This document shows, piece by piece, positions 10,452-33,700 of a stretch of 64,000 nt of DNA. This DNA is from Eledone cirrhosa (Eukaryota): the NCBI GenBank assembly GCA_964016885.1, contig OZ024744.1, positions 32,860,001 to 32,924,000 of the forward strand. Reading direction: 5' to 3'. The position numbers and the translations under genes were made by a program. Position 1 is the stretch's first letter, and the number at the start of each line of letters is the position of its first letter. The notes under the pieces are model-generated. The model was not told the origin of the DNA and made no database searches. It saw only the letters and a list, made by a program, of their open reading frames with translations.

Positions 10452-13400
10452 CTACAGCCGCATGACCAGAGTAGGCCCACTCACACGGGCCATTCTCGCC
10501 ACATTCACCCACCTTTCAGCAAATGTACTGGGGGGCAGCACTTCTCTCTCCACCCTCACCTTCCTTTCCAAGTGAAACTTGAAAAAGTTGATGAGGAATT
10601 GGCCGAAGAGAAAAGTGTCTGTCTTCAGTCCTTTCAACCTGGTCCACCATACAACCTCTTTCGCTACTGCCACCAGAGAGGAAAATTGCCTGCCCTTCCT
10701 GGCCAAAAGAAGGCGGCAGGTCGATCTTCACTATGGACTCGGCCGATAGCCGGATCTGTTCTACACGCGACAACAGCTGTTCAACATAATTCCACAAGTC
10801 AGTAATGCATGGACACTGGACGAGTGCGTGCAGAACGGTTTCGTCGCTCTGCGCGCATCTCGGGTAGGTCCGTCTGAGAGCACTTCCGTGCCTGTAGAGT
10901 TTATCTCGAACCGGCAGTGCCCCCCGGTAGCACTGCCAAGTGAGGGATTTTGGGAAATTATCCATCGTCCCCGGCTCGAAAGTCCTCCGGTACAGACTGG
11001 TTAGTTCGACTTCGTTGACTCCCAGAGCCTCTCCGAGTGCGTCGTCGCACTTGCCCACCACTAATCCTCTATAGAACTCGAGAGTGGAAGTTCCACTGAT
11101 CGCATTGCCCGCCTGGTAGAGGGCAGTGAGTGTCTCGCAACATTCCAGATGCCAGTCACCCAGTCTCGGTCTCATCTTGACCCAGGACTGCAACTCAGTC
11201 AAAGAAACGAGCTGCGGAAAGGCCTGTCTAACAAACGGCGACCACACCTGTTCACCGTTTAGGCAGAATATCTGGAGATGCCGCCGCCTCAGCGCGTACC
11301 TGCGCATCATTAGCCACGGCATGCCCAGCCCTCCACGTAGAGGGTGCTGGCAGCAGATGCACCGCCTCACCAGCGGAACCTGACCCCACCACAAGAATTT
11401 GAAGAGGAGCCGCTCCAAGATGGCGAGGTGCGAACGGGGGCAAGGGACGACAGTCAGACGGTAGTAGATGACGGACGCGATGTACGCGTTCGCCACCTCC
11501 GCCCGACCTTTCAGTGATAGCTTCATCCCAGCCCATTTCTGGGTGAGACTGACTACCCTGCCCGTCACCTCGTCCCAATTCTTATCCACCTGGAGGTCTG
11601 GCCCAAACCAAACCCCTAGCAACTTTATCGGTCCGTCCGTCCAGCGCCTAAAGCCGCTGTTAGACGGCATGGACTTGCCCCTCCAGGTGCCGAGTTGCAA
11701 GCCCACTGACTTTTCCGGGTTAAGTTTTGCTCCCGTCAACCTTTCATATTCCTCCAATAAGTTGCCGACCACCTCGATTTCTGAGGTGTCCGACACCATC
11801 ACGGTGATGTCGTCCGCATAAGCCGACACAGCCTTTCCTCGTCCCGGTTCGAGCGGGATGCCCTGCAACAGCTCCAGCTTCCGCAGTAAAGGCTCGAGAG
11901 TCAATACGTACAGAAGGGAGGAGAGAGGGCACTCTTGACAGACCGATCGGGAGACCTCAAACGGTTCCGAGAGGTGGCCATTAAGTTTGACCGTCGAGCA
12001 GGTGCCGCTGTGCATTGCAGCGATCCAGCTTCTGAAGACGGGGCCGAAGCCACCTGCCTTGAGGACAGCCTCCAGGTACCGATGGTCGACCCTATCGAAT
12101 GCTTTCGAGTGATCTAAATTGATCAGAGCCCCACCGAATCCAGGTTTACACCCAACCCTCTCTATGATGTATCGCATTAGGTGGAGGTTGTCGTGTATGG
12201 ACCTGGTTGGGATTGCGCAAGTTTGCGCCTCCCCAACCAAATCCCCGACGACAAGCGCCAACCTCTTCGCTAACACCTTGGCCAAAATCTTAAACTCTGT
12301 GTTGAGCAGAGTTATGGGCCTGAAATTGTCTAATATGTCCCTCTTGTTCTCGTCTTTCCTTATCAGCGTCACTACGCCCCGGCTCACAGAACTGGGAATA
12401 CTACCGTTTTACTGCCAGTTGCAGTAGAGGGCTTCGAGGAGATTGGAGAACAAGTCTGGCATATTTACGTAAAGCTCGTAGGGCAGGCCATCCAAACCGG
12501 GTGACTTGCACCTCATGTAGCCAACAAGGGCATCCTGAATCTCGGCTGAAGTAATTGGCCTTTCGCAGCGCCCAGCGTCAGCCGTCGAGAGTTGCGGCAA
12601 GCCATCGAGATAGGGACTGAAGTCCGCCACCATCTCTGACCCGCCACTTCCCTCGAACAACCGAGCTAAATGTTGGCGAAAGGCCTCACACATCCTCTTG
12701 GAATCGTTCAGCTCGTGCCCGTCTCTGTCCGCCAAAGACCGAATCGTGGTTTTATTACCACGTTGCGACTCTGCCACGCGGGCCCATCGAACAGCTTTGG
12801 TTCCCTCGTTTCTCAGAGCACGCGCCTTAGCTCTGACAATGCAACCTTCGTGTTTCGCATTGAAGAAATGGTCTAATGCCATTCTCGCCGCTAACACATC
12901 AGTTGCAATGCCACTACCAATAGCCTCGTCTAACTTATCTACCAACTCCCCCTCCTTTCTACTTTTCTCTAATGTTACTTCTTTGCTAAACTCTATCGAC
13001 ATTACTCTAATCTCTCTTTTGAGAGCCCCCCCCCCCCCCCACCATCTATTGTTGACGATTCCCCCTGTCAACTTTTTCTTAACTAAATTGTTGCCCTGGT
13101 CCCTGTAAGCCTTACGTGCCGGAAATGACATATTTAGCTTCCAGTAACCAGGTCCTAACCTACGCGTCTTATCTAGGTCGACCATACAGATCACAAACTT
13201 GTGATCTGAATAGGCGACCGTTACAAAACGTGGACAGCTTATACTATTTCTGTCTATTTTCCTAATGAATATCCTGTCTATATACGATCTAGATGACCCT
13301 ATGCGATTAGCCCAGGTCCACACTGGCGCATTAGGGAAATCTAGTCGGTACCTGTCAGACAGTTGGAACTGGCTGATCAGGTTCTTGAGGCTTTTGCACC

Positions 13401-13871
13401 CCCTGCTCCTATTGGATACTCCCACACAGTCCCAGCGTGCGTCTAAGACCCCCGCTAACAGTAACGGGCGAGAAGTACTCAGAAAGGCTTCCAGGCGTCT
13501 AAAGAAATCCGGCCGTCCTGCCCCAGCAGGAGCATAGACGGCCACCAGTCTAAAGGCACCACCTTCGTTGTTGTTCACGTCCAGGACCACCAACTTCCCG
13601 TCCGGGTCCCGGAATATCGACCTTACCTCGAGATCCAGGCCTTTCCTAAACAGCACTGCCACCCCGCCTCCCATTCCCGGCCGGCTAACAGATGCAAAGA
13701 TCTGTTAGTCATCGAAAATGGGTGCTTGTGCGCGCGTGTCAGAAATCCTGGTCTCGCTCTGACTGCAATTACATCCATTTCTATACACCTGAGGTCGTTG
13801 AGCAGGTGACCCTGCTTCTAGGACGATCCCAGGCCTCGAACATTTAAAGATCCTACTCTTAATACGGGCAT
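10452..13871 (-). pseudogene. LINE ORF2 (APE endonuclease + reverse transcriptase + C-terminal zinc motif), frameshifted
   Basis: ATG at 13871 (MPVLRVGSLNVRGL). APE motifs GGGVAVLF, VAVYAP, SYIDRIF, SDH and WKLN. KSPGLDGLPYE. RT motifs NFRPITLLNTEFKILAK, KAFDRVDH, QECPLS and AYADD. GGLGMP and C..SDETVLHALVQC. Stops or frameshifts near 13820, 13760, 13705, 12400 and 10675. Confidence 0.93.
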
Positions 13872-13906
13872 GTTGGCAGGTTAAACAGAGAGAGAGGAAG
13901 GTTTAC

Positions 13907-15889
13907 TTACTTTCCGGGTCTTGTGAAGGTCGGGTTGTTCGACCTCCATAGTTAGTGGGGTTTCTTTTGGGAACCCCTTTAAAATCTTGAAGTGGGTTTT
14001 ACGTTCGGGGTTCCCACGTCCCGAGGAAAGCTGTCTCGTATTTCTTTGAATATGTCGAGCGACATTCGCACCAGAACCAAATATTCCGGCACGCAGAATG
14101 TGCTCGATTTAAAAATTTCTCTTTTTGTATATTTTCACTTCGTGCTACGAGGGCCATCAATTCCTTGTTGGCCCTCCTGACGAGCACGAAGTTTTGTATG
14201 TTTTGTTGGTGTCATTTTATTTGTTTGCGTGACTGTTGTGGTGATGGTTTTAGTGGTGTTGTTTCGGTTGTGTCTGTGTTTGTTGTCAGTGCGGTGTCTG
14301 TGGTTTCAGATGTTTGTGTGTATATTTGTTCTTGCGTCTGTTTCGGTTGTTTGTGTTTGGGGGATTCTGGTGATAGTGATGGTGGTGTTGATGTTGGTGT
14401 TATTGGAGAGATGTTTGCGTGTGTGGTGTCTGCGTTTTTTTATTGTGGGTGCTTTTGTGCTTTGTTGAGTTTTTTTTTTCTTTTTGTGTTTCCTTTTTTG
14501 TATTTTGGTGGATTTTGGATTTCCCTCATCTTCACTACTGGTAGATGAGGGGTCTGTGTCTGTAAGTGTGTCTGTATGTATGTTTATGGTTTTATTGGTG
14601 TGTGTATTTTTGGGGGGAGGGAGAATTTGAGAGCTTTCCTCGTTTCCCCCCTGGGTGGTCAATGTTGGTGGTGGTCTTTCTATTGGTATTGTTGTTGGTA
14701 GTTTTGCCGGTGCTGGTATTGGTTGTTGTCCTCGCCCCGGCGTCGGCAGCAGTGGAGCCTTTTGACCCCTTGCCTCTTTCAGCAGTTGAAGGCAGAAGGC
14801 TCGCAAATGGGTTTTTTACCCACAAACAAAACACTGCGGCCTTTTTCATTCGGTTATAATGTGAATGACCGTCCCATTCTGAAGGCGGATGTGGTCCGGG
14901 ATTGTCTTCACATTCTCGGGCCTGATCTGGAGAAGGATCTCCAGGTCAACCCCGGACCAGTCCTCTCTGGCCGTTCTGGTCACTTCTATAGGGACTGTAT
15001 CCGTCCCCTCCACAATCACACATCCCAGAAGCCACCACATGTCAAGTCCTGGTGGAATTCTGGGAATGCGGAGACGGGCCGTTCTTTTTCCCATGTGGGA
15101 GGGGTACATTGTGACCTTGCTGGTTTTGAAAAGAGTCATAGCGTGTTTCATAGCGAGAGCTTCTGACTTGAACAACACCGAAATGGTGCCGTACTGTCTG
15201 CCTCTCTCTATGTACTGGGTGTCTTCTCTGATGCACCTCAGCGTGACTTCGACATCTTCTTGTGGGATTAAAGCTGCCCTTTTGGTTTGTGCTGAGATGC
15301 ATCTATAATGCACCGTTTTGCGCTCCACTGCCTCAATAGCTTCTACCGGGACAGTTAAGTTGGCCCAGGTTTGCTCTAGCTTGATGAGCTTCCATGCCTG
15401 GGCCAACTTTTCATCTTTGTTTGAGAGGTCCATGTTGAAGCATGGCCTCTTTTTTGCTGCTGCCGCAGCGAAAGTGTTCTTCTTGTTTTCGTTGGGGGTG
15501 TTGTTGTCGTTGTTCTTGTTGGTGTTGTTGTTAGCACTGTCGCTGTTATCATTGTTGTCTTTTTTGCCACCGTTGTTCTCGGTGCAGTTGGTATTGTTGC
15601 TGTTGGTGTTTTCGCTATTTGTTTTCATGTTAGTGGTGTTGATATTGTTGTTGTATTTTTTTTGTTTTTTTTTATATCTGTATTTTCCTTGTCGCTGTTA
15701 CTGTCATTTTTTTCAAAATTAGAGTTCTTATTGGTATCATTGGTGTCTTTGTTTACCTTGTTTGTGGTGGTGTTTGTGTTATCAATGTGTGTTAATTTCG
15801 CTGTAACGCTCCTCTCAACTTCTACGTCGTTGTCGCACGACAGCCGACATATCGCTGGGGGGGGGGGGGGGGGGGCGGGGCTCAGCCAT
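13907..15889 (-). pseudogene. LINE ORF1 (Asn/Thr-rich N-terminus, RRM-like core, CCHC zinc knuckle), disrupted
   Basis: ORF pieces 14846-15628 and 14306-14806 are in one frame. Reading through two stops gives RPQCFVCG*KTHLRAFC (CX2CX4HX4C). FAAAA motif and Lys-rich tail. Probable ATG at 15889. Confidence 0.75.
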
Positions 15890-18085: not shown

Positions 18086-21000
18086 TCATCATCATCCTCA
18101 TCAACTTCATCACCGTTTTACGTCGATTCTTCTACGCTAGCATGGGTTAGACGGGTTGTCCTGTTGTGGGCAATGTTAGGTCGGCTGACCTTATCTTGCT
18201 CATACGGGAACTGATTATAGTTTGAATTCTACAGCTGGATGCCCTTCCTAACACCAACCTCATTTACAGTGAGTGCTGGGTGCTTTTTTTCTGTGGCACC
18301 TACACGTCCACTTTATAGTGTGGGCTGGGTGCTTTTTTGCCGTGGCACATCTACGACCACTTTGCAGTGGGAGGGGATGAGGGTATTTTGCCTATAAGCT
18401 TCAGCTTCGGCTTGTACCGGTGAGGGGACCGGGTCTTCTGTATTACTGCGTGACGCCAGAGGTCTCGGTCGCGTGTCATCGCCGGTCGGCTTTTATCACC
18501 TCATCCCAGGTCTTCTTGGGTCTTCCCGCTCCACGACTTCCATCAACTTTTAGTGCTCTGCACATTTTTATGCTGCTGTCATCCTTCATACGCATCACAT
18601 GTCCATACCAACGCATCTTCCTCTCCTGCACACAGCATTTGATTCCTCTTATGTTCAGTCACTCTCTCAGTTCGTTTGTTTTGCTATTCAGGTATATTAC
18701 TATTTCACATCCATCGGAGCATGCAAGCTTCGTTTCTTTCTAATCTACGCAAGTCTTCTACACACAGCGCCCAGGTCTCCCTACCATGAAACATTGCCGT
18801 TCGTATGCACGCATCATACAGCCTGACTTTCATTTTGAGGGAAAAGCCTGTTGCAGTTAGCAGTGTCAGTAGCTCCCTGAACTTCTTCCACCCCCTTCTT
18901 ACCTTGGTTAGTGTACTTTCAGAACATCCACCTCCACTGCTAATTTGGTCACCTAGGTAGCAAAAGCTGTCTATTCAGTCTAAAGAGCCCTCCCAGAGTT
19001 TGGTAGTGCTTGTTTCCTGTGGCTGTTTGCTGCTTACTGTCCCGGTGCAGCTGCTACATGTAAAGCCTACATTCCTAAATAAGATTCCTGAGATCCCACT
19101 ACATCTCTTGTGTTCCCATAGTTTGTATTTGGGGCAGAGGATAGAATTCCTACCTACACCTTTCCTACATATTGAGCAAGGCCATTTCCCTGAGGGGATC
19201 TGGGTTCTGTTTTCTCGTCTACTTACTTCGTCTTTGACAGGTTGACTTTGAGCCCACTTCTTTCTAATCCCTGCTTCCATGTTTGAAATTTCTTCTTTAG
19301 TTCCGCCATAGATTCAGCTATAAGTGTAAGATCATCCGCATACAGAAGTTACCATGGGCATCCGGTCTTAAACTCCTCTATTATAGCCTGCAATAAACAG
19401 GAGAGGGCTAAGAACAGAGCCCTGGTGGACACCGACCTGTATGCTAAATTCCTCGCTATAGTCATTGTTAACCCTAACTTTGTTGACTGCTCCCCTATAC
19501 ATGGCTTGTACAGATTTCACAAGCCATTAACCAACTCCTAGTTTTCTAAGAGCCCACCAGATTATAGCACGGGACACTATGTCGAAGGCTTTTTCCAGAT
19601 CGACAAATGCCGGGTAGAGCGGTTTACTTTTAGCTAGGTACTTTTCCTGTAACTGCCCCACAAGGAAGAGAGCATCAGTTGTGCTTTTTTTCTGACACAA
19701 ACCCAAACTGCTTCTCATCTAGTTTATAGCTGTGCTATAACTCTTTCCGTTACTTTCATGACCTGGTCTATCAGCTTTATACCTCTATAGTTTACTCTAT
19801 CTAGTGCATCTCTTTTTCCCTTGTAGCAGTTGACAACGATGCTGCTGCGCTAATCCTTTGGTATGACACCTTCTTGTATTACCTGCTTAACAATACGTGT
19901 GGTTATGTTATGACCTACCGACCCAGGTGCTTTCAGCATCTCAGCCGCTATACCCGATAGACCGGTTGCCTTCCCAGTCTTCATATCTGTAATTGCCTTA
20001 CTTATTACGCTGCTGTTATGTTGTATTGCTGGTCCCTCTATAGGGTCCACTTGGGGTAGTGTCGCTTTCTCCCATGCATTCTCCTCATTTTGTAATCTTT
20101 CATAATGGCTCTTCCACGCAGCTTTCTTCTCGGCACTTGTGAAGGCAAGCTCACCTTTATCATTCCGAACACATTTCTCGCCAATGACATCACAATTTTC
20201 TCTAACACACTGCCTCGCAATCCTGAACACCTCCTGTTTCTGGTCCTCACGTTTCAAGACATGCTTGAATTTTCTATCCTCCGCTTCCCTTCTAGCTAAG
20301 TATACTTGTCGCCTAGCTTCCCTCCTGGTCTCTATGTAACATAATACCCTGCTTCCCCCATTCTTCCATTCTTTCCATGCCTGTCTCTTGGCCTTAACTG
20401 CCTCATCTACCTTATTGTTCCCCCATCAAGTCACTCTCAGATTACGTTATCTACCCATATGTCAGCTAATAGTATACCCACACCACCCATCCTACTGTCA
20501 TTTCTCACCCAGAAACATTTGTAGCACTGATTTTTGCCTACAAGCAATCTAACAAACGCTCCTCTCCATCTAATCTCTTGCACACAACATACATCAATTT
20601 CCTTTCGCTCTAGCAACTCTAGGATTTCTTCTGCTCTTCCTTTCATTGTGCTTAAGTTGATGGTGCCAAACCGTAGTTTTGGGCATTTACCATTACTCGT
20701 GGGAATGGGTGGATTTTTGTGGAGGAGTGTGTATGATTTCTGTCTCTGAATTAGAGCTTTGCATGAGTGCTTGGTACCTCGTGGATTCACACTCATGCAT
20801 TTATTCGGAGTTGTTCCATTATCCTCAGCTCATCCATAGCTAACGTTAAACAGGACTTCTTTGGTGCAGAGCTAGGACAGTAGTAGTAATGGCAGAATTG
20901 GTTGGGGCTGGTAAGGGCTAGAATGACCGTAGTAGTAATGGCAGGATATGTTGGGGCTGGTAATGGGTGAGGACATTTTGCTGTGGTTTGATTGGTTGGA

Positions 21001-21200
21001 GAGCCTATGGTGGTGGGAGGGAAATTGTGAGATAGATCGCCAACATGGCGTGGGTAAACCAGCGAGGTTTATTTTGAAGAGAAAACGAAATATATAATTT
21101 GTGTGTGACAGCTCACACCTATGCAGGTTTAGCTGGCCTCCTCCAAGGCATATCTCGTTGGAGGTGTCTTGGGTAATTTAATGATAGGGACCCCAGTCCT
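18086..21200 (-). mobile_element. RTE-clade LINE, decayed with internal deletions, (GAT)n tail
   Basis: Single APE-RT frame remnants. The 3' UTR ends AACCCGTCTAACCCATGCTAGCGTAG...(GAT)n. A ~49-bp tandem duplication lies in the 5' region (~20877-20970). The 5' boundary is uncertain. Confidence 0.88.
18352..20796 (-). pseudogene. RTE ORF (APE + RT + Cys-rich PHD-like insert)
   Basis: LRFGTINLSTMKGR..VCCVQEIRWRG; GKATGLSGIAAEML; STTDALFLV..LQEKY..AFVDLEKAFD; VGVHQGSVLSP; LLYADD (~19331-19348); WPCSICRKGVGRNSILC..WEHKRCSG; GRPKKTW. Multiple stops and frameshifts. Confidence 0.9.
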
Positions 21201-21204
21201 ATCA

Positions 21205-21343
21205 TCTCATTTCTACAGCTGAGTAAACTGGAGCAACGGGAAATAAAGTGTCTTGCTCAAGTAAACAACCTGGTCCGAGAATTGAACTCACAACCTTTCG
21301 ATTGCAAGCCCAATGCTACAATCACTAAGCCATGCACCTTCAC
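21205..21343 (-). mobile_element. SINE family 2 (CORE-like) head, directly upstream of and co-oriented with the RTE
   Basis: Minus strand GAAGGTGCATGGCTTAGTG...GAGTTCAATTCTC...CTTGAGCAAGACACTTTAT...CTCAGCTG matches 7478-7607. Confidence 0.78.
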
Positions 21344-21879
21344 ATGTGGTGACAAACGGACGAAAATAATATAATACAACAATGTATACATAACATTTTC
21401 AAATTGACAAGGAAAAATAGCTGTGGCCAGGAAAAATACCTGTGGGGGCGAAAATAATCTATAGATGGCTGGGAGATGAGTTGGAAATCTTTAAAAATTA
21501 ATTGAGAGAATTTGAAAAAAAACGTCTATCTTCCTAGACCTAAGATGAATGAGTTCATTTAAGCAACAATCTGCTCTGCAGATCGAAGAACCGTACCACA
21601 CGTCATCGCTATTTATGAAGATCCGACACACAAATAGACGCCAAAATGGACTTAGTCATACAGATATCCAGAAAATGATAAGTGAACCGTTGGGATCGGT
21701 AAAATAAATAAACTGATACTCTTTAATGCAGCCCTTCGTTGGATGACCTGTGCTTCACTTGCCACTTGGTATTTTTATTTTTTTTAAATCATCAGTTAAC
21801 GTATCTCCTTAAAAAATTGTTTTTCGTTTTGCCTTTTTTCCTGTTCGTTGTCTTGTCCTCTCTTTGCTAATTTTCTTAA

Positions 21880-24541: not shown

Positions 24542-24631
24542 CAAAAGGGATATTTAATTTGTTGTAATTCAACAAATATAAATGTTTATAACTGATTCGA
24601 AGCACTCGACAGTTTTCTGGAGTATAATATT

Positions 24632-24968
24632 CAATGATATTAAATCAATGGAAGCTATATTTATAAAACCATATTTATTCTATTATATATATATTTCAAC
24701 GGTACCAAACTTTGGTACGCACTCATCAGATAAAATACAAAGTTTGTTTTATAAATATTGACATAACCAGGAAGAAGATCTTAACAGTTCAAGTTTTTCC
24801 TGGAAAAACTTGAACTGTTAAGATCTTCTTCCTGGTTATGTCAATATTTATAAAACAAACTTTGTATTTTATCTGATGAGTGCGTACCAAAGTTTGGTAC
24901 CGTTGAAATATATATATAATAGAATAAATATGGTTTTATAAATATAGCTTCCATTGATTTAATATCAT

Positions 24969-24970
<2 letters not shown>
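24632..24970. repeat. Perfect palindrome (169-bp arms, 1-nt centre at 24801) carrying family A hammerheads on both strands
   Basis: Centre AAGTTTTTCC-T-GGAAAAACTT; the arms read as exact reverse complements. Confidence 0.92.
24865..24926 (+). ncRNA. Type I hammerhead ribozyme (family A); mirror copy on the minus strand at 24676-24737
   Basis: TATTTTAT-CTGATGA-G..GTACCAA(agt)TTGGTAC..T-GAAA-TATATATA-TA|ATAGAATA. Confidence 0.8.
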
Positions 24971-25013
<43 letters not shown>

Positions 25014-25018
<5 letters not shown>

Positions 25019-25129
25019 AAAAAGTTTGACCCCGACGGCAGAGCTCAAGCCGTTTCGACGGCTATTTCAGTCCAGAAATAGCCGTCTAAACGGCTTGAGC
25101 TCTGCGGTCGGGGTCAAACTTTTTCCTAT
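25014..25129. repeat. Fold-back inverted repeat (~56-bp arms) between (TA)n tracts
   Basis: ATAGGAAAAAGTTTGACCCCGAC.GCAGAGCTCAAGCCGTTT.GACGGCTATTTC is followed by its reverse complement after a ~5-nt spacer. Confidence 0.85.
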
Positions 25130-25205
25130 TTCCCACTCTACTACCCTAAGTATTGAGTACTCTGGTGCGTTATGGTCCATCTGGTTCCTTACCACAACTC
25201 CTTTG

Positions 25206-25285: not shown

Positions 25286-25725
25286 ATATATATATGAATG
25301 TATATATAGTGTATTTTGCAATACACTGTATGCTTAATTAAAAGGAATTTGAAGACCATACGCTATTGTTTTAAAGTAGTGACAATGTCATTTACTTAAC
25401 TTTTCGCCAAACAGGGGAGATAAGCTGACAGAGCTCTGTTTCGTACTTGTTGGTACCGCTCTGTATAATCAGTTCCTGATTATTACTGGAATTCTATAAG
25501 AATCCAACACACATAATTTTCAGCAAACAGGGAGAGTAGCGAAATTTGATAAGTACCAACAAGTCCAAAACAGAGCTCTGTCAGCTTACCTCTCCTCTTT
25601 CCTGAAAATTTAAGTAAGTTACATTGTCACTACTTTAAAACAATAGCCTATGTTCTTCAAAATGCTTTTAATTAATCATAAAGTGTATTGCAAAATACAC
25701 TATATATACATTCATATATATATAT
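25286..25725. repeat. Imperfect inverted repeat (~170-bp arms, ~95-bp spacer) with hammerhead remnants
   Basis: Arms ~25286-25456 and ~25553-25725. The minus strand of the left arm has GTAC(caacaa)GTAC-GAAAC-AGAGCTCT-GTC|AGC. Confidence 0.78.
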
Positions 25726-25728
25726 ATT

Positions 25729-26710
25729 TCGTATAGGTGTCATGTTAAAAATAACCCATCCGAAACTGTAAAGTGGTCGTGTAGATGTCATGATAAAAAT
25801 CACCCAGCTCACACTGTAAAGTGGTTGTGTAGGTGTCATGATAAAATCACCCAACCCACACTGTAAAGTGGTCGTGTAGGTGTCATGATAAAAATCACCT
25901 AACCCAGACTGTAAAGTGGTTGTGTAGGTGTCATGATAAAATCACCCAACCCACACTGTAAAGTGGTTGTGTAGGTGTCATGATAAAATCACCCAACCCA
26001 CACTGTAAAGTGGTTGTGTAGGTGTCATGATAAAATCACCCAACCCACACTGTAAAGTGGTCGTGTAGGTGTCATGATAAAAATCACCTAACCCAGACTG
26101 TAAAGTGGTCGTGTAGGTGTCATGATAAAAATCACCCAGCCCTCTCTGTAAAGTGGTTGTGTAGGTGTCATGATAAAAATCACCCAACCCACACTGTAAA
26201 GTGATTGTGTAGGTGTCATGAAAAAAATCACCCAGCCCACACTGTAAAGTGGTCGTTTAGGTGTCATGATGAAATTCATCCAACCCTCTCTGTAAAGTGG
26301 TTTTGTAGGTGTCATGTTAAAAATCACCCAACCCTCTCTGTAAAGTGGTTTTGTAGGTGTCATGATAAAAATCACCCAGCCCTCTCTGTAAAGTGGTTTT
26401 GTAGGTGTCATGATAAAAATCAGCCAGCCCTCTCTGTAAAGTGGTCGTTCAGGTGTCATGATAAAAATCACCCAACCCACTCTGTAAAGTGGTCGTGTAG
26501 GTGTCATGATAGCACCCAGCCCTCTCTGTAAAGTGGTTGTGTAGGTGTCATGATAGCACCCAGTAGTCCCTGTAAATTGGTTGTGTACGTCTCATGATAG
26601 CACCCAGCCCTCTCTGTATAATGGTTATGTACGTGTCATGATAGCACCCAGTAGTCCCTGTAAATTGGTTGTGTAGCTGTCATGATAGCACCCAGTAGTC
26701 CCTGTAAATT
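25729..26710 (-). repeat. Short array (~21 units) of the 48-bp satellite, opposite orientation to the large array; last units are a 44-bp variant
   Basis: Unit TCATGATAAAAATCACCCAGCCCTCTCTGTAAAGTGGTCGTGTAGGTG. From ~26500 the unit is TCATGATAGCACCCAG.... Confidence 0.95.
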
Positions 26711-26870
26711 GAGGTTGACGTTGGGAAGGCATCAGCTACAGAAACTAAGCCAGAAACAGACTGGTATGAAGAAGGCATGGTCAAATGACCTAGGATTGCC
26801 CACAATAGGACAATCTCGCCTAACCCATGCTAGCGTGGAAAATAGACATAAAGACGGAGGTGATGATGAT
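26700..26870 (+). mobile_element. RTE-like 3' tail contiguous with the short array
   Basis: TGTAAATTGAGGTTGACGTTGGGAAGGCATCAGCTACAGAA...CTAACCCATGCTAGCGTGGAAAATAGAC...(GAT)n matches the reverse complement of 18086-18268. Confidence 0.85.
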
Positions 26871-26932
26871 ATGTGTGTATATATACAGAAATATGTATAC
26901 ATAGACCATGTGTGTATATATGTATATAACAT

Positions 26933-27148
26933 CCAGCCATCACTGTAAAGTGGTCGTACACGCCAAAAAGCACCCAGCACACACTGTAAATGTGGTTGGT
27001 GTTAGGAACGGCATCAGCCATAGAAAACCATCCAGAAACAGTCCTATAGGAGCGAGACACGGTCACCCGACACAACCTGCCTCTAAATGGGACAAACCCG
27101 TCTAACCCATGTTAACATGGATGATATACGTTAATCGATGATGATGAT
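26933..27148 (+). mobile_element. Second RTE-like 3' tail with about one satellite-like unit
   Basis: CACTGTAAAGTGGTCGTACAC..AAAAAGCACCCAGCACACACTGTAAATGTGGTTGGTGTTAGGAA...AACCCGTCTAACCCATG...(GAT)n. Confidence 0.85.
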
Positions 27149-27150
27149 AA

Positions 27151-27172
<22 letters not shown>

Positions 27173-27181
<9 letters not shown>

Positions 27182-27584
27182 TAAACAAATAATGAATAAA
27201 CAATTCCTTATATTAAACAAAAAAAGTTCATTATTTAACGATCGTTTCTAGGGTATACATGTGTTATAATTGGTATGCATATTCAACAGATCTATGTACA
27301 AAATTATACAAAATTATACAAATTATCAAGATTAAATATACATACCTAACACATATATACGCCGTCTTCAGAAATAAATTTATTTCTGAAGACGGCGTAT
27401 ATATGTGTTAGGTATGTATATTTAATCTTGATAATTTGTATAATTTTGTATAATTTTGTACATAGATCTGTTGAATATGCATACCAATTATAACACATGT
27501 ATACCCTAGAAACGATCGTTAAATAATGAACTTTTTTTGTTTAATATAAGGAATTGTTTATTCATTATTTGTTTAATATTTTAT
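27173..27584. repeat. Perfect spacerless palindrome (206-bp arms, centre 27378/27379)
   Basis: Centre GCCGTCTTCAGAAATAAA|TTTATTTCTGAAGACGGC; the arms read as exact reverse complements. Confidence 0.92.
27380..27526 (+). ncRNA. Type I hammerhead with a ~115-nt extended stem II; mirror copy on the minus strand at 27231-27377
   Basis: TTATTT-CTGAAGA-[GTATATATGTGTTA/TAACACATGTATAC and GGTATGTATATTTAA/TTGAATATGCATACC]-GAAA-CGATCG-TT|AAATAA. The base of stem II is imperfect. Confidence 0.65.
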
Positions 27585-27942
27585 CTTGACTCTGTATACC
27601 GTTTATCTTTCACCGAAAGTGGATTTTCATTACATCTCTTCTTTCCATGATATCCGGAATACATTGAGTTCTTCATACGGATTGGACACTACCGTAAACT
27701 CTTGGTAGATTTATCTACATATATATATATATATATATATTTCGTTTCTGAATTTGTTTAGCAAGATTCTTTATCTGAAATCGTGTGTTGAAACCAATAT
27801 TGTTATACTTTGGGAGGGTCATGTTGCCAATAAGAAACACACGCACCAGTTGCTTTCACTTCAGTTTATTATATATTTATAAATTTACAAATTTATAAAT
27901 TTCTGGTTGGTTGGTTCCACAACCAGATAGTTGTTTATATAT

Positions 27943-27987
27943 AGTCATAGTTCTTTCGTCACACACTCTGTGACCTCTTCAGTGACT
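27943..27987 (-). ncRNA. Minimal type I hammerhead ribozyme in the PLE 3' UTR
   Basis: AGTCA-CTGAAGA-G-GTCAC(agagtgt)GTGAC-GAAA-GAAC-TA|TGACT, with perfect 5-bp stems I and II and an intact core. Confidence 0.85.
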
Positions 27988-28173
27988 GGGGATTCCTTTC
28001 TTTGTTTCTGTGCCTCTCCTTTGTTCTGTCCTACGCCATTTTGTTTCTGTGTGTGTGTTGTGTGCTCAGTCTGCGCATGCGCCACATCCGGGTGTCTGTG
28101 TGTGTTTATGTGTTTATTTACATGTTAGTGGTTGGTTGTTTGTTCTATGTGTGTGCGTGTTTTCATTTTGTCC

Positions 28174-30681
28174 TTAATTGTAAGTTGTGATGTTGCTGTT
28201 CCACTCATATTTTCTATTTAATTTTGGTTGTAATTCTTTTATGTTTATTGCCTCTGTAATTTGTCTAAACATTGCGTCTTTTCTGTGTGTAGATTCTATT
28301 TTTATTTCTATGTTCTCTAATTTACCCTTGTGTTCTATCTTAGCATGTTGGTAGAGTACAGATGATTCTTTATTATCTTGAAGGTCTCGCCAGTGTTCAT
28401 TTATCCGTTCCCCTACAATACGAGCTGTCTCACCTATGTACACTATATTTTTGTCTCTACATTGTCCTTCAGTACATCTTATGCTATACACTACATTTCT
28501 AGTTTTACAGTTAATATGGGGGCTTATTTTACAGGTTATACATTTCTTATCTATACATGAGGGTCTTTGAAATGGGTATGTCTTGCTAATAAGTGTTTTT
28601 ACGGAGGTACCTGGTCTTTCTACTATCTTAATATTGAGTTTATGTTTATTTAGGGCCCTTCTAAATTTGTAAGCTAGTTCGCCTCTAGGGGTTGTATCGA
28701 TGAACATTACACTCTGGTATTTATTGCTATCATACCATGAGTTTATTCTATTGGCCTTGTTCCTAGTTCTTTCTATTCTATTCCAAAATTTGCTCCTATA
28801 CAAGGGGCAGGTCCCATTTATGTCATTATTTACCATTTTTTCCCATTTGGTTCTGGCTCCTCTATACACTCTGATACTATCTCTCTGATTGTGGCCAGAG
28901 AACTGCATACGGTGGATGAAGTGTTGTATGTGTCTCTCTAGTTCTTCGGGGTTGCACATGCGGGACACATTTCTCATCACCCGTACCAAATCCGCAATCA
29001 GTATGTTGATTTTGGTATGGTCCGAAATGGCCGAGTTTCGGTGGATCAGATGTTTGGAAGTCATGGGTTTGGCATAATGGGAATGGAGGATTTGTTTTTT
29101 GTTGTTAATGTTATCTAACCAGAGCTCTGTGTCTAGTACAGGTAATCGATGGTTGGGGTGTTTAATTGGGTAGTCTATAGTAACTCTAATGCTCTGGTGG
29201 ATGGAGTTTGCTATTTGCTGGATGCTTTCCATTGTGTTTTTCTCTAGTTCCTGACTGTTCTCTAGTGGGGGTGTCTTAACTACGATGTTTATATCATCTA
29301 CGTAGCGGGAGTACATTATCAGGGTTAAGGGGTCTTCTAATTGTTCTTTAAGTTTAAGCTTAAGTCTACTGTCCCACCATACCATGAATAAGTTAGCTAT
29401 GTCGCCTGCAATGCTAACACCAATGGCTGCTCCTTCCTCTTGGGCATATGTTTTTCCATTAAATTTGAACATATGTTCCTTAAGGGTTAGTTTTATGCTG
29501 GCCCCTACCGCATGTGCAATCATTTTCTTCAGTTCATCGTGGTTTTCGGGTGTCCGTATGGCTCTGGTCCACCCGTTCCATCTATCTGTGTGGGTTTTTT
29601 TGGCCATTGAGGTAATGGTAGGTGGTCTGCCTCTTGCTGGTCTTGTAGGGCACAGGTTGCTAAGGTCATATGTGTCTAGGTAACTATTACTATAGGCAAG
29701 CTTAAGTAGGAGCCCAAGCTCACTGGTATCAATCCCACGGAACTCAACCTTGCTCTCACTGATCATTTCTACGCATTTCTCCACAGCAAAATCCACGTCA
29801 ATAGATGGATACAGGGACACAACATCCATATTGCCTATTATGCAGTTTGTTAGGTCCCCAGATCGGTTACTCACGCCGATTCTGCTGAGGAGGTCCTCCG
29901 TGCTCTCACATACATCTGGGGACATTTCAATGATGGGGCGTATGATCAGGGAGAGGAAGTAGGACAGTCTGTAGTTACTAGCAATTTTAGCTCCACAGAC
30001 TGGCCGTGTTGGTGGTCCCGCGACATGGTCACAGCCCGTTTTATGGTCTTTTCGAATCCCATACAACGCCGGCACGTCATTGTTCCAGGCCTGGGAGTTG
30101 TTGGCAGTCCTTTTGTTGGGCTGCATTATATTCGTCCACATCACCATATGGGCATTGAGGGCTTTTTCTCTATCCTCATGCTCCTGTGGTGTTACTTCTC
30201 TGGGGTTAGTAATGTGGGGTTGCATTGCCTGGATATAGTTTGGCAGGCTGTCAACCGACATTCTGCCATACTTGTCTGTTGGAAAGCATGCTATCTCTCC
30301 ATTACGTGAGCGCTGCATGAGCTTACGCAAGCAATTTGCAGATTTTTCTCCCAGTTGCTGGACCTCCATTCTATTATGCTTCTTGCTATACTGTTCTATA
30401 ATATTTCTAAGTTCGGATCTAGCTATACTAAATTGTGCTTCTGTTTGTTCATCGACCTGCGACGGCAATTGCGTGCGTTTGTTAAATAGTAAAGTCGTGG
30501 CGTGGACTCGTCGCAGGTCGAATGATTTATCGGAGGGATTATAAAACGGAGAGTTCCAGGCTGATGCTTTATGTGTACTAGTGCTATTATTATTGTTAGT
30601 TGTGTTGTTTCTATATCTATTTCCACCAACAGCCTCATGGTTGTATCTGTGTCTCTCATAATTACTCCTGTCTCTTTCCAC
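28174..30681 (-). CDS. PLE reverse transcriptase + GIY-YIG endonuclease (835 codons uninterrupted, N-terminus probably missing)
   Basis: PTDKYG, YGIRKDHK..PTRPV, MDVVSLYPSI, QEEGAAIG, YSRYVDD, LPVLD, YAKPM, Cys linker CIDKKCITC, NVVYSIRC..VYIGETAR..ERINEH, RQITEA..LNRKYEW. The track start is GTG and the frame stays open up to the satellite junction. Confidence 0.93.
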   Translation of the reverse strand: MERDRSNYERHRYNHEAVGGNRYRNNTTNNNNSTSTHKASAWNSPFYNPSDKSFDLRRVHATTLLFNKRTQLPSQVDEQTEAQFSIARSELRNIIEQYSKKHNRMEVQQLGEKSANCLRKLMQRSRNGEIACFPTDKYGRMSVDSLPNYIQAMQPHITNPREVTPQEHEDREKALNAHMVMWTNIMQPNKRTANNSQAWNNDVPALYGIRKDHKTGCDHVAGPPTRPVCGAKIASNYRLSYFLSLIIRPIIEMSPDVCESTEDLLSRIGVSNRSGDLTNCIIGNMDVVSLYPSIDVDFAVEKCVEMISESKVEFRGIDTSELGLLLKLAYSNSYLDTYDLSNLCPTRPARGRPPTITSMAKKTHTDRWNGWTRAIRTPENHDELKKMIAHAVGASIKLTLKEHMFKFNGKTYAQEEGAAIGVSIAGDIANLFMVWWDSRLKLKLKEQLEDPLTLIMYSRYVDDINIVVKTPPLENSQELEKNTMESIQQIANSIHQSIRVTIDYPIKHPNHRLPVLDTELWLDNINNKKQILHSHYAKPMTSKHLIHRNSAISDHTKINILIADLVRVMRNVSRMCNPEELERHIQHFIHRMQFSGHNQRDSIRVYRGARTKWEKMVNNDINGTCPLYRSKFWNRIERTRNKANRINSWYDSNKYQSVMFIDTTPRGELAYKFRRALNKHKLNIKIVERPGTSVKTLISKTYPFQRPSCIDKKCITCKISPHINCKTRNVVYSIRCTEGQCRDKNIVYIGETARIVGERINEHWRDLQDNKESSVLYQHAKIEHKGKLENIEIKIESTHRKDAMFRQITEAINIKELQPKLNRKYEWNSNITTYN

Positions 30682-30702
30682 TGGCTCATTGTTGTTATCT
30701 AC

Positions 30703-33700
30703 CCTGGGTGATTTTTATCATGACACCTACACGACCACTTTACAGAGAGGGTTGGGTGATTTTTATCATGACACCTACACGACCAATTTAAAGAGAGGGC
30801 TGGGTGATTTTTATCATGACACCTACACGACCACTTTACAGAGAGGGCTGCGTCATTTTTATCATGACACCTATACGACCACTTTACAGTCTGGGTTAGG
30901 TGATTTTTATCATGAAACCTACACGACCACTTTACAGTCTGATTTAGGTGATTTTTATCATGACACCTACACAACCACTTTACAGTGTGGGTTGAGTGAT
31001 TTTATCATGACACCTACACAACCAATATACAGTGTGACCTGGGTGATTTTTATCATGACACCTACACGACCACTTTACAGTGTGGGATGGGTTATTTTTA
31101 TCATGACAGCTACACAACTACTTTACAGAGAGGGTTGCGTGATTTTTATCATGACACCTACACGACCACTTTACAGAGAGGGCTGTGTGATTTTTATCAT
31201 GACACCTACACGACCACTTTACAGAGAGGGTTGGGTGATTTTTATCATGACACCTACATAAGCACTTTACAGAGAGGGCTGGGTGATTTTTATCATGATA
31301 CCTACACGACCACTTTACACTGAGAGTTGGGTGATTTTTATCATGACACCTACACAACCAATTTGCAGTGTGAGCTGAGTGATTTTTATCATGACACCTA
31401 CACAACCACTTTACAGTGTGCGATGGGTGATTTTTATCATGACGCCTACACGAGAACTTTACAGAGAGGGCTGGGTGGTTTTTATCATGACACCTACACG
31501 ACCACTTTACAGAGAGGGCAGGGTGATTTTTATCATGACACCTACACAACTACTTTACAGTGTGGGCTGGGTGATTTTTATCATGACACCTACACAACAA
31601 CTTTACATAGAGGGATGGGTGATTTTATCATGACACCTACACGACCACTTTTCAGAGAGGACTGGGTGATTTTTATCATGACACCTAAACAACCACTTTA
31701 CAGTGTGGGCTGGGAGATTTTTATCATGACACCTACACGACCACTTTACAGTGTGGGTTGGGTGATTTTTATAATGCCACCTACACAACCACTTTACAGA
31801 GAGGGTTGGGTGATTTTTATCATGACACCTACACGACCACTTTCCAGTGTGGGCTAGGTGATTTTTATCATGACACCTTCACGACAATTTTACAGAGAGG
31901 GCTGGTTGATTTTTATCACGACACCTACACGACCACTTTACAGTGAGGGTTGGATGGTTTTTATCATGACACCTACACAACCACTTTACAGTGTGCGCTG
32001 GGTGATTTTTATGATGACACCTACAGGACCACTTTACAGTGTGGAGTGGGTGATTTTAAGCATGACACCTACACGACCACTTTGCAGAGAGGGCTGGGTG
32101 ATTTTTATCATGACCCCTACACAACAACTTTACAGAGAGGGCTGGTTGATTTTTATCATGACACCTACACGACCACTTTACAGAGAGGGCTGGGTGATTT
32201 TTATCATGACACCTACACAACCACTTTACAGTGTGGGCTGGGTGATTTTTATCATGACACCTTCACGACAACTTTACAGAGAGGGCTGGGTGATTTTTAT
32301 CATGCCACCTACACAACCACTTTACAGAGAGGGTTGGGTGATTTTTATCATGACACTTTCACGACAACTTTACAGAGAGGGCTGGGTGATTTTTATCATA
32401 ACACCTACACAACCACTTTACAGTGAGGGCTGGTTGATTTTTATCATGACACCTACACAACCACTTTACAGAGAGGGCTGGGTGATTTTATCACGACACC
32501 TATACGACCACTTTACAGAGAGGTTTGGGTGATTTTTATCATGACACCTACACAACCACTTTACAGAGTGGGCTGGGTGATTTTTATCATGACACCTTCA
32601 CGACAACTTTACAGAGTGGGTTGGGTGATTTTTATCATAACACCTACACAACCACTTTACAGTGAGGGCTGGTTGATTTTTATAATGACACCTACACGAC
32701 AACTTTACAGAGCGGGCTGGGTGATTTTTATCATGGCACCTACACGACAACTTTGCAGAGAGGGCTGGGTGATTTTTATCATGACACCTACACGACCACT
32801 TTACAGTGAGGGTTGGGTGATTTTTATCATGATACCTACACGACCACTTTACAGAGAGGGCTGGGTGATTTTTATCATGGCACCTACACGACAACTTTAC
32901 AGAGTGGGCTGAGTGATTTTTATCATGACACCTTTACGACAACTTTACAGAGAGGGTTGGGTGATTTTTATCATGACACCCACACAACCACTTTACAGAG
33001 AGGGCTGGGTGATTTTTATCATGACACCTACACAACAACTTTACAAAGAGGGCTGGTTGATTTTTATCATGACACCTACACGACCACTTTACAGTGAGGG
33101 TTGGGTGATTTTTCTCATGACACCTACACAACCACTTTACAGTGTGCGCTGGGTGGTTTTTATCATGACACCTACAGGACCACTTTACAGTGTGGAGTGG
33201 GTGATTTTTATCATGACACCTACACGACCACTTTGCAGAGAGGGCTGGGTGATTTTTATTATGACACCTACACAACCACTTCACAGAGAGGGCTGGTTGA
33301 TTTTTATCATGACACCTACACAACCACTTTCCAGAAAGGGCTGGGTGATTTTTATCATGACACCTACACGACCAGTTTACAGAGAGGGCTGGGTTATTTT
33401 TATCATGAAACCTACAAAACCACTTTACAGTGAGGGCTGGGTGATTTTTATCATGACACCTACACGACCACTTTACAGAGAGGGCTGGGTGATTTTTATC
33501 ATGATACCTACACAACAACTTTACAGAGAGGGGTGGTTGATTTTTATCATGACACCTACACGACCACTTTACAGTGAGGGTTGGGTGATTTATATCATGA
33601 CACCTACACGACCACTTTACAGAGAGGGCTGGGAGATTTTTATCATGACACCTACACGACCACTTTACAGAGTGGGCTGGGTGATTTTTATCATGACACC

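Follow-up and report, generated by a model that had tools for sequence, protein, structure and literature searches.

Satellite arrays of a 48-bp unit that very probably arose in place within the 3' UTR of an RTE-like LINE in Eledone cirrhosa

The birth of satellites, and why few of their seeds grow, is an old question that usually has to be asked without a known start sequence or replicates. Repeats of variable length inside mobile elements are familiar from the VNTR of SVA. LINEs of the RTE clade, about 3-3.5 kb long, have one ORF in which an AP endonuclease precedes RT, lack a separate ORF1, and carry a short tandem microsatellite in place of poly(A) at the 3' end. The family described here resembles the Ogre/Tat LTR retrotransposons of plants, in which short 3'-UTR arrays are dispersed with the element and are occasionally long, with all intermediate sizes (as described in PMC7004042). 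Like the cetacean common satellite (from the 3' end of L1), chicken HinfI (from CR1) and Drosophila 18HT (from the HeT-A/TART 3' UTR), it takes its monomer from 3' sequence of a non-LTR retrotransposon (as summarised in PMC9659126). Reviews name such 3'-end satellites for L1, CR1 and HeT-A and give no RTE case in their accessible parts (PMC9659126, PMC12628747); the term 'RTE' is absent from the main text of PMC9659126. A variable-length internal repeat is also shared with MITEs, Helitrons/Helentrons and Tetris (in the accounts of PMC12628747 and PMC9659126).

The window (the whole stretch of 64,000 nucleotides that was analysed, G000:C28:32860001-32924000) lies in an assembly of 3.0 Gb and holds two arrays in opposite orientation (Table 1). 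Their TRF scores, 1,231 and 48,232, exclude arrays by chance. The larger one had been read from the sequence as an array of ~690 units; a large array is indeed present, but 690 is its in-window share, and the whole comprises about 1,204 units in 57.6 kb (~58 kb). No N was found in the 124 kb spanning this region. We found a mean pairwise difference of 12% between the units, while blocks of 3.1-4.3 kb were 99% identical to their neighbours (block duplications), and growth of the big array therefore continued recently. It is a satellite by its long head-to-tail array, homogenised monomer and higher-order blocks. Self-comparison of the big array gave no minus-strand matches, and four apparent plus-strand matches, which would have been inverted units, proved to be fuzzy mismatches. 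At the 3' end the units break off at position 42 and no tail follows. The far (5') end adjoins a head on the same strand with the units in register; this head, preceded by (TA)n, consists of the last 63 ORF codons with the stop codon and of ~120 bp from the proximal 3' UTR, and is 81-87% identical to 29 other heads of the family.

The small array begins at unit position 12 behind an (AT)n run and has no head. Walking upstream from each RTE-type tail, we counted 21 units before 26702, one before 26984 and two in the broken RTE-like copy (18270-18367), in agreement with the counts of 1, 2 and ~21 in the sequence-only reading. The join of the array to an RTE 3' terminus was also seamless, as had been described, with the last unit continuing in register into a tail of ~165 bp with (GAT)n. 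AGCACCCAG was present in 5/5 of the 44-bp units and in 0/16 other units of the small array, and the big array has T in this variant column in 1,020/1,057 of its 48-bp units. Outside AGCACCCAG and the deletion, the 44-bp units carry satellite-type letters. Alignment distances to 24 family units were 8.6-10.6 for the 44-bp units and 9.64 +/- 0.65 for 200 interior units. The edge units had been thought nearer to the RTE type; they do keep two family letters, but their overall distance is no smaller than that of interior units. Because the distances overlap, the edge gradient amounts to the two retained letters. The 1-unit tail forms the rear half of an element with two tails, a layout of a subfamily: the order tail, spacer, one or two units, tail recurs at many loci (e.g. 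L005, L006, L008, L019, L020, L074, L084, L085). The 1-unit and 21-unit tails, taken earlier for stages side by side, thus belong to one double-tailed element. The RTE-like copy at 18090-20830 is a separate relative and not part of this element.

Table 1. Features of the window and related loci; positions are those of the window unless a contig is given.
Feature	Position	Strand	Details
Broken, near full-length RTE-like copy	18090-20830	-	2 units of 49 bp, one tail
Inverted-repeat (MITE-like) element in (AT)n	25286-25723		171-nt arms, 90%; abuts left breakpoint
Small array, satellite-type units	25729-26481	+	1 partial unit and 15 of 47-48 bp
Five 44-bp tail-proximal units	26482-26701	+	4-bp deletion, family G in AGCACCCAG
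Tail 1, RTE-type 3' end	26702-26870	+	(GAT)n, predicted terminal stem-loop
AT-rich spacer between tail 1 and second unit block	26871-26942	+	common to many family copies
One 41-bp unit and tail 2 with (GAT)n	26943-27148	+	the '1-unit tail' of the sequence-only reading
Penelope-like element, 5'-truncated	27741-30705	-	open frame 28174-30714, 846 aa
Big 48-bp array	30704-64000	-	extends 24 kb beyond the window to G000:C28:32948364
RTE-like head, 5'-truncated	G000:C28:32948365-32948678 (L063:4365-4678)	-	outside the window
87-kb array	C3:361,447,429-361,534,390		86.9 kb, ~1,810 units; headless, ends in tail
22-kb array	C1:31,523,113-31,545,100		22 kb, ~460 units; headless, ends in tail

The carrier of these units is a very abundant old LINE family that likely belongs to the RTE clade, a name we take from its architecture. 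Its copies run from the end of the ORF through a UTR head and n units to a tail with (GAT)n, and one subfamily adds a spacer, units and a second tail. The copy at 18090-20830 matches Exo_endo_phos at its 5' end and has RT-region fragments downstream, and reading across this broken copy suggests a single ORF, endonuclease then RT, with no separate ORF1. A 421-aa frame of the family matches RVT_1 and PHD-type finger proteins, and one homolog of a family ORF, with 62% identity, is labelled Octopus bimaculoides. (GAT)n ends the three tails of the window and most array tails. RNAalifold predicts a terminal hairpin for six tails (columns 120-152), with one two-sided change and a covariation term that is not favourable. 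Target-site duplications had been named as a check on the arrays; flanking words of at least 7 bp were shared in 8/29 arrays (control 14%) and of at least 8 bp in 2/29 (control 5%), so that no clear excess was seen among these 29. For the C-terminal peptide, the best other copy was 82% identical among the best 150 scored of 87,673 candidates, and there is therefore no young subfamily source among the 150.

Several other features were noted. SINE-like sequence lies upstream of the RTE-like copy (window ~21150-21345, minus strand), and at L021, L023 and L028 such sequence is joined directly to one unit and a tail, which suggests a SINE partner that shares the 48-bp unit with the LINE. A second LINE (10516-15697, minus strand), presumably L1/Tx1-like, has endonuclease, RT and zf-RVT, an upstream ORF and nearly intact frames. 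A perfect palindrome of 206 + 206 nt without spacer stands between (AT)n and unique DNA (27173-27584); further palindromes lie at 24627-24975 (99%) and about 25016-25130, and inverted arms of 303 nt at 571-873/1694-1996.

Unit numbers across the genome were counted in four samples of 29 non-self loci, drawn from the first 30 of the best 40 scored matches per search. Head sample A had 0-3 units in 25 loci, 13 in one and about 42 in one (2 unresolved), while in head sample B 20 loci had 0-4 units and two had 10 and 11 (7 loci unresolved). Tail sample C gave 0-4 units in 23 loci and 7-13 in six, and tail sample D 0-5 units in 27, 9 in one and 32 or more in one. Altogether 95/107 resolved copies had 0-5 units and 12/107 had at least 7. 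A query with the unit only returned 39 other arrays of 8 units upward, a lower bound from one query; at L196 and L221 the scored array is the longest in the stretch and not the matched one. Tails stood at the end of 35/39 of these arrays (32 by BLAST, 2 partial by eye, 1 upon extension) and 4 had none, which bears out the expectation that arrays of this monomer carry an RTE tail at one end. Array sizes in family copies take every value up to 87 kb. Four giant contigs held 9/39 unit-picked arrays vs 39/78 tail-picked copies (p = 0.006, a post hoc comparison from one query), a hint that arrays are rarer on the four largest contigs than tail-picked copies.

Some surroundings of these arrays were also recorded. 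Telomere-type (CCCTAA)n begins ~18 kb past the 87-kb array (G000:C3:361,552,600-361,564,500; L336, L296, L297), and (CCCCAA)n was met at a probe 10 kb beyond it, 17 Mb from the contig end; the telomere-type repeats are possibly an old chromosome end or fusion site. Penelope-like fragments, ~70% identical to the window copy, lie 2.5-9 kb beyond the same array (L335-L336). The array cluster of L072 (G000:C20:13,035,001-13,045,000) has units in both orientations and no head or tail match. It holds the sole satellite-type 30-mer away from the window locus, probably a convergent one.

We consider it probable that the 58-kb array grew in one dead, 5'-truncated LINE copy, the end of which was flipped together with its double tail by an inversion of ~5 kb. 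The 21 units and tail beside the big array are likely the flipped end of that array, and the 21-unit and ~1,200-unit arrays, earlier seen as further stages side by side, are probably two pieces of one. The halves are complementary: a head is attached to the big array but not to the small one, tails to the small array but not to the big one, and 17 missing bp would join the two broken ends. Within the big array, four unit variants seen at the start of the small array are confined to the last 15 units, where their order is similar. Of the occurrences of rare shared 16-mers in the big array, 13/38 fell in its last 800 bp where 1.4% were expected (overlapping words are not independent), and the same test from the middle of the small array gave 0/31. 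On a whole-segment score with the small array's first 370 bp, the broken edge of the big array ranked only 7th of 240 windows, which speaks against this reading. For a satellite-type 30-mer, 298/299 genome matches lie within these two arrays. The loci nearest to the head and those nearest to the tail were each selected among about 4,000 candidates, and 8/39 of the former adjoin one of the latter. In the tail tree, tail 1 falls in a clade with five loci picked by head alone (support 100/99, a weak test as the bootstrap had not settled), and the one diagnostic column that the head offers agrees. Undoing an inversion of 25729-30703 restores the order head, array, tail, spacer, unit, tail and leaves the Penelope-like copy with an (AT)n run on either side. 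Target-site duplications are not readable at the array element, both outer flanks of which are (TA)n.

The right breakpoint coincides with the 5' end of the Penelope-like element, which we assign to that group also by its C-terminal motif. Such elements have one ORF with RT followed by a GIY-YIG endonuclease. Pfam gave a weak RVT_1 match and nothing else; HTH_animal, RVT_1 and GIY-YIG are found in atlas look-alikes (0.95-0.96), where 26-58% of members have GIY-YIG. Its 5' end meets the end of the big array through a 2-bp microhomology, the first residues of its open frame being encoded by the array, and its 3' end lies at an (AT)n run. The copy is ~98% identical to its nearest copies, and 10/11 of these continue upstream at the point of truncation. 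Queries with the upstream 1.5 kb of three relatives did not find the missing 5' part within 10 kb to the left or 60 kb to the right of the window. During or after the Penelope-like insertion, a break inside the array may have been mis-joined to the free 5' end of the new copy, inverting 25729-30703 with a loss of at least 17 bp. TE insertions and short deletions have been described at Chlamydomonas inversion breakpoints, with other element types (in the account of PMC9977147).

Two elements could have given a similar picture if the big-array copy lost its tail at the Penelope-like insertion and a neighbouring headless copy received satellite-type units from the big array via inverted duplication or gene conversion. 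We judge this improbable. The family is dense enough for neighbours to be common (87,673 first-look candidates for the C-terminal peptide), the start of the small array differs from the big-array edge at several sites, and the head falls outside the tail clade: the head tree, which has no starred branch, groups it weakly (84) with a locus not belonging to that clade. Yet two losses would be needed, and a transfer that happened to fit the register of a tail; letters of both types, satellite and family, are combined in the 44-bp units, and head and tail indicate one subfamily. That a single element was turned around by an assembly error is scarcely credible, even though palindromes and (AT)n abound in the region and the array/Penelope junction is spanned by no read or contig among the matches listed. 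The Penelope-like family has many copies, and repeats are where contigs break. At one breakpoint a 5' truncation joins cleanly through microhomology, the sequence runs without N, and the perfect palindrome sits inside the inverted segment and not at its ends. The reading of one element split by a genuine inversion is therefore preferred.

The sequence-only reading had proposed that the array expanded inside an RTE-type 3' UTR, and this is supported by the far end of the big array, which abuts the ORF's end and the proximal UTR, and by the tails on 35/39 other arrays. We regard an in-situ birth inside the LINE 3' UTR as very well supported. It had also been suggested that array and tail are mobilised together: array-plus-tail transcripts would be reverse-transcribed by the RTE enzyme and seed new arrays, headless arrays being 5' truncations within the array. 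This we hold to be distinctly improbable. Most arrays do keep a tail with the predicted stem-loop, and stringent 3'-end recognition is presumed for LINE/SINE pairs including RTE (as stated in PMC3747384). The double-tail layout shows that units between two tails are carried along, and 29/38 arrays are headless. However, arrays were not headless more often than tail-picked copies (head present in 9/38 vs 10/29, p = 0.42), and this control removed headlessness as a sign of reverse transcription. Units differed by 3.3 per unit within and 6.1 between loci across the 39 arrays; three-unit runs were shared in 2/871 and four-unit runs in 0/883, the closest tails were 91% alike, and no pair copied from one another was found among the 39. 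With one marker 30-mer per large array, 432/432 genome matches for the 87-kb array and 124/126 for the 22-kb array fell in the own locus. Nor were arrays clustered on the tail tree (134 rows, poorly resolved, 4/131 branches starred), where the array label required 32 changes vs 34.8 when shuffled, 70/500 shuffles being as low. This tree omits L196, L224, one duplicate, two long branches and the six arrays whose tails were not usable, and took the tail of the C3 array from L335 in place of L197. The sole all-array clade, of six tails in the tree that placed tail 1, was a sampling effect and dissolved, as 27/29 of its nearest tails have 0-5 units. Nor did the 150 scored copies of the C-terminal peptide, the best of them 82% identical, include a young source. 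An element-mobilised repeat would leave dispersed copies with the private units and ends of a single array, and these tests found none. Local homogenisation could erase old kinship, and there is a small chance, somewhat above that of mobilisation as proposed, that some headless arrays of 8-70 units were reverse-transcribed long ago from array-plus-tail transcripts and have since been homogenised beyond recognition. If so, the LINE would have both founded and spread satellite arrays on all chromosomes.

Growth in place is thus the reading that we follow. The arrays of 22, 58 and 87 kb likely arose independently, and since each has its own unit they were likely grown in place and not moved by the retrotransposon. 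The LINE would spread seeds of 1-4 units rather than grown arrays. After insertion, one variant unit would have been amplified and homogenised locally, likely by unequal exchange, at first as monomers and lately as blocks of 1.2-4.7 kb. Edge units may have been left out of homogenisation and so kept some family letters. A hairpin-prone unit was rejected as the driver of expansion, as 0/6 two-unit stretches folded better than shuffles (z -1.47 to +1.78).

End branches of the tail trees measured ~0.08, the nearest Penelope-like copies differ by 2% and the blocks by 1%, which roughly orders the events as LINE insertion, Penelope-like insertion and inversion, and latest block duplications. On the O. 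vulgaris scale 0.065 corresponds to 18 My and 0.09 to 25 My (as given in PMC13282606). If that rate applies, these events would date to roughly 20 My, a few My and 1-2 My ago.

The candidate LINE copies, tens of thousands of them, have scattered nearly one seed of 1-4 units through a single genome, with outcomes from no growth to 22, 58 and 87 kb. As the attached LINE end dates and orients each array, a single genome allows the size of arrays to be related by regression to recombination rate, chromatin and founder variant. Searches of the open-access literature found no account of a satellite from an RTE 3' UTR, nor of this 48-bp repeat, and neither octopus nor RTE is mentioned in a centromere atlas preprint. 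RTE-2_OV of Octopus vulgaris, an RTE-clade LINE, likewise encodes endonuclease, RT and zinc finger in one ORF and ends in a microsatellite; its published account makes the 3' UTR mostly microsatellite and mentions no tandem unit (PMC9115989). The L1, CR1 and HeT-A satellites rest on monomer likeness, and in the account of PMC9659126 none is described with an array capped by element ends. MITEs, Helitrons/Helentrons and Tetris are proposed to carry arrays (in the accounts of PMC12628747 and PMC9659126), whereas here seeds of 1-4 units are dispersed and no copied array was seen. The likeness to Ogre extends to few units in most copies and expansion in few, but the carrier here has the architecture of a non-LTR element, in an animal, whereas Ogre is a Ty3/gypsy LTR element. 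In contrast to the Ogre satellites as described in PMC7004042, single loci are resolved here that have kept their head and/or tail, and several locus-private satellites derive from one monomer family. The family works like Ogre-type 3'-UTR satellites but is no member of that kind. This route to a satellite is known from plant LTR elements, and the present locus is an unusually clear animal, non-LTR case of it rather than a new principle.
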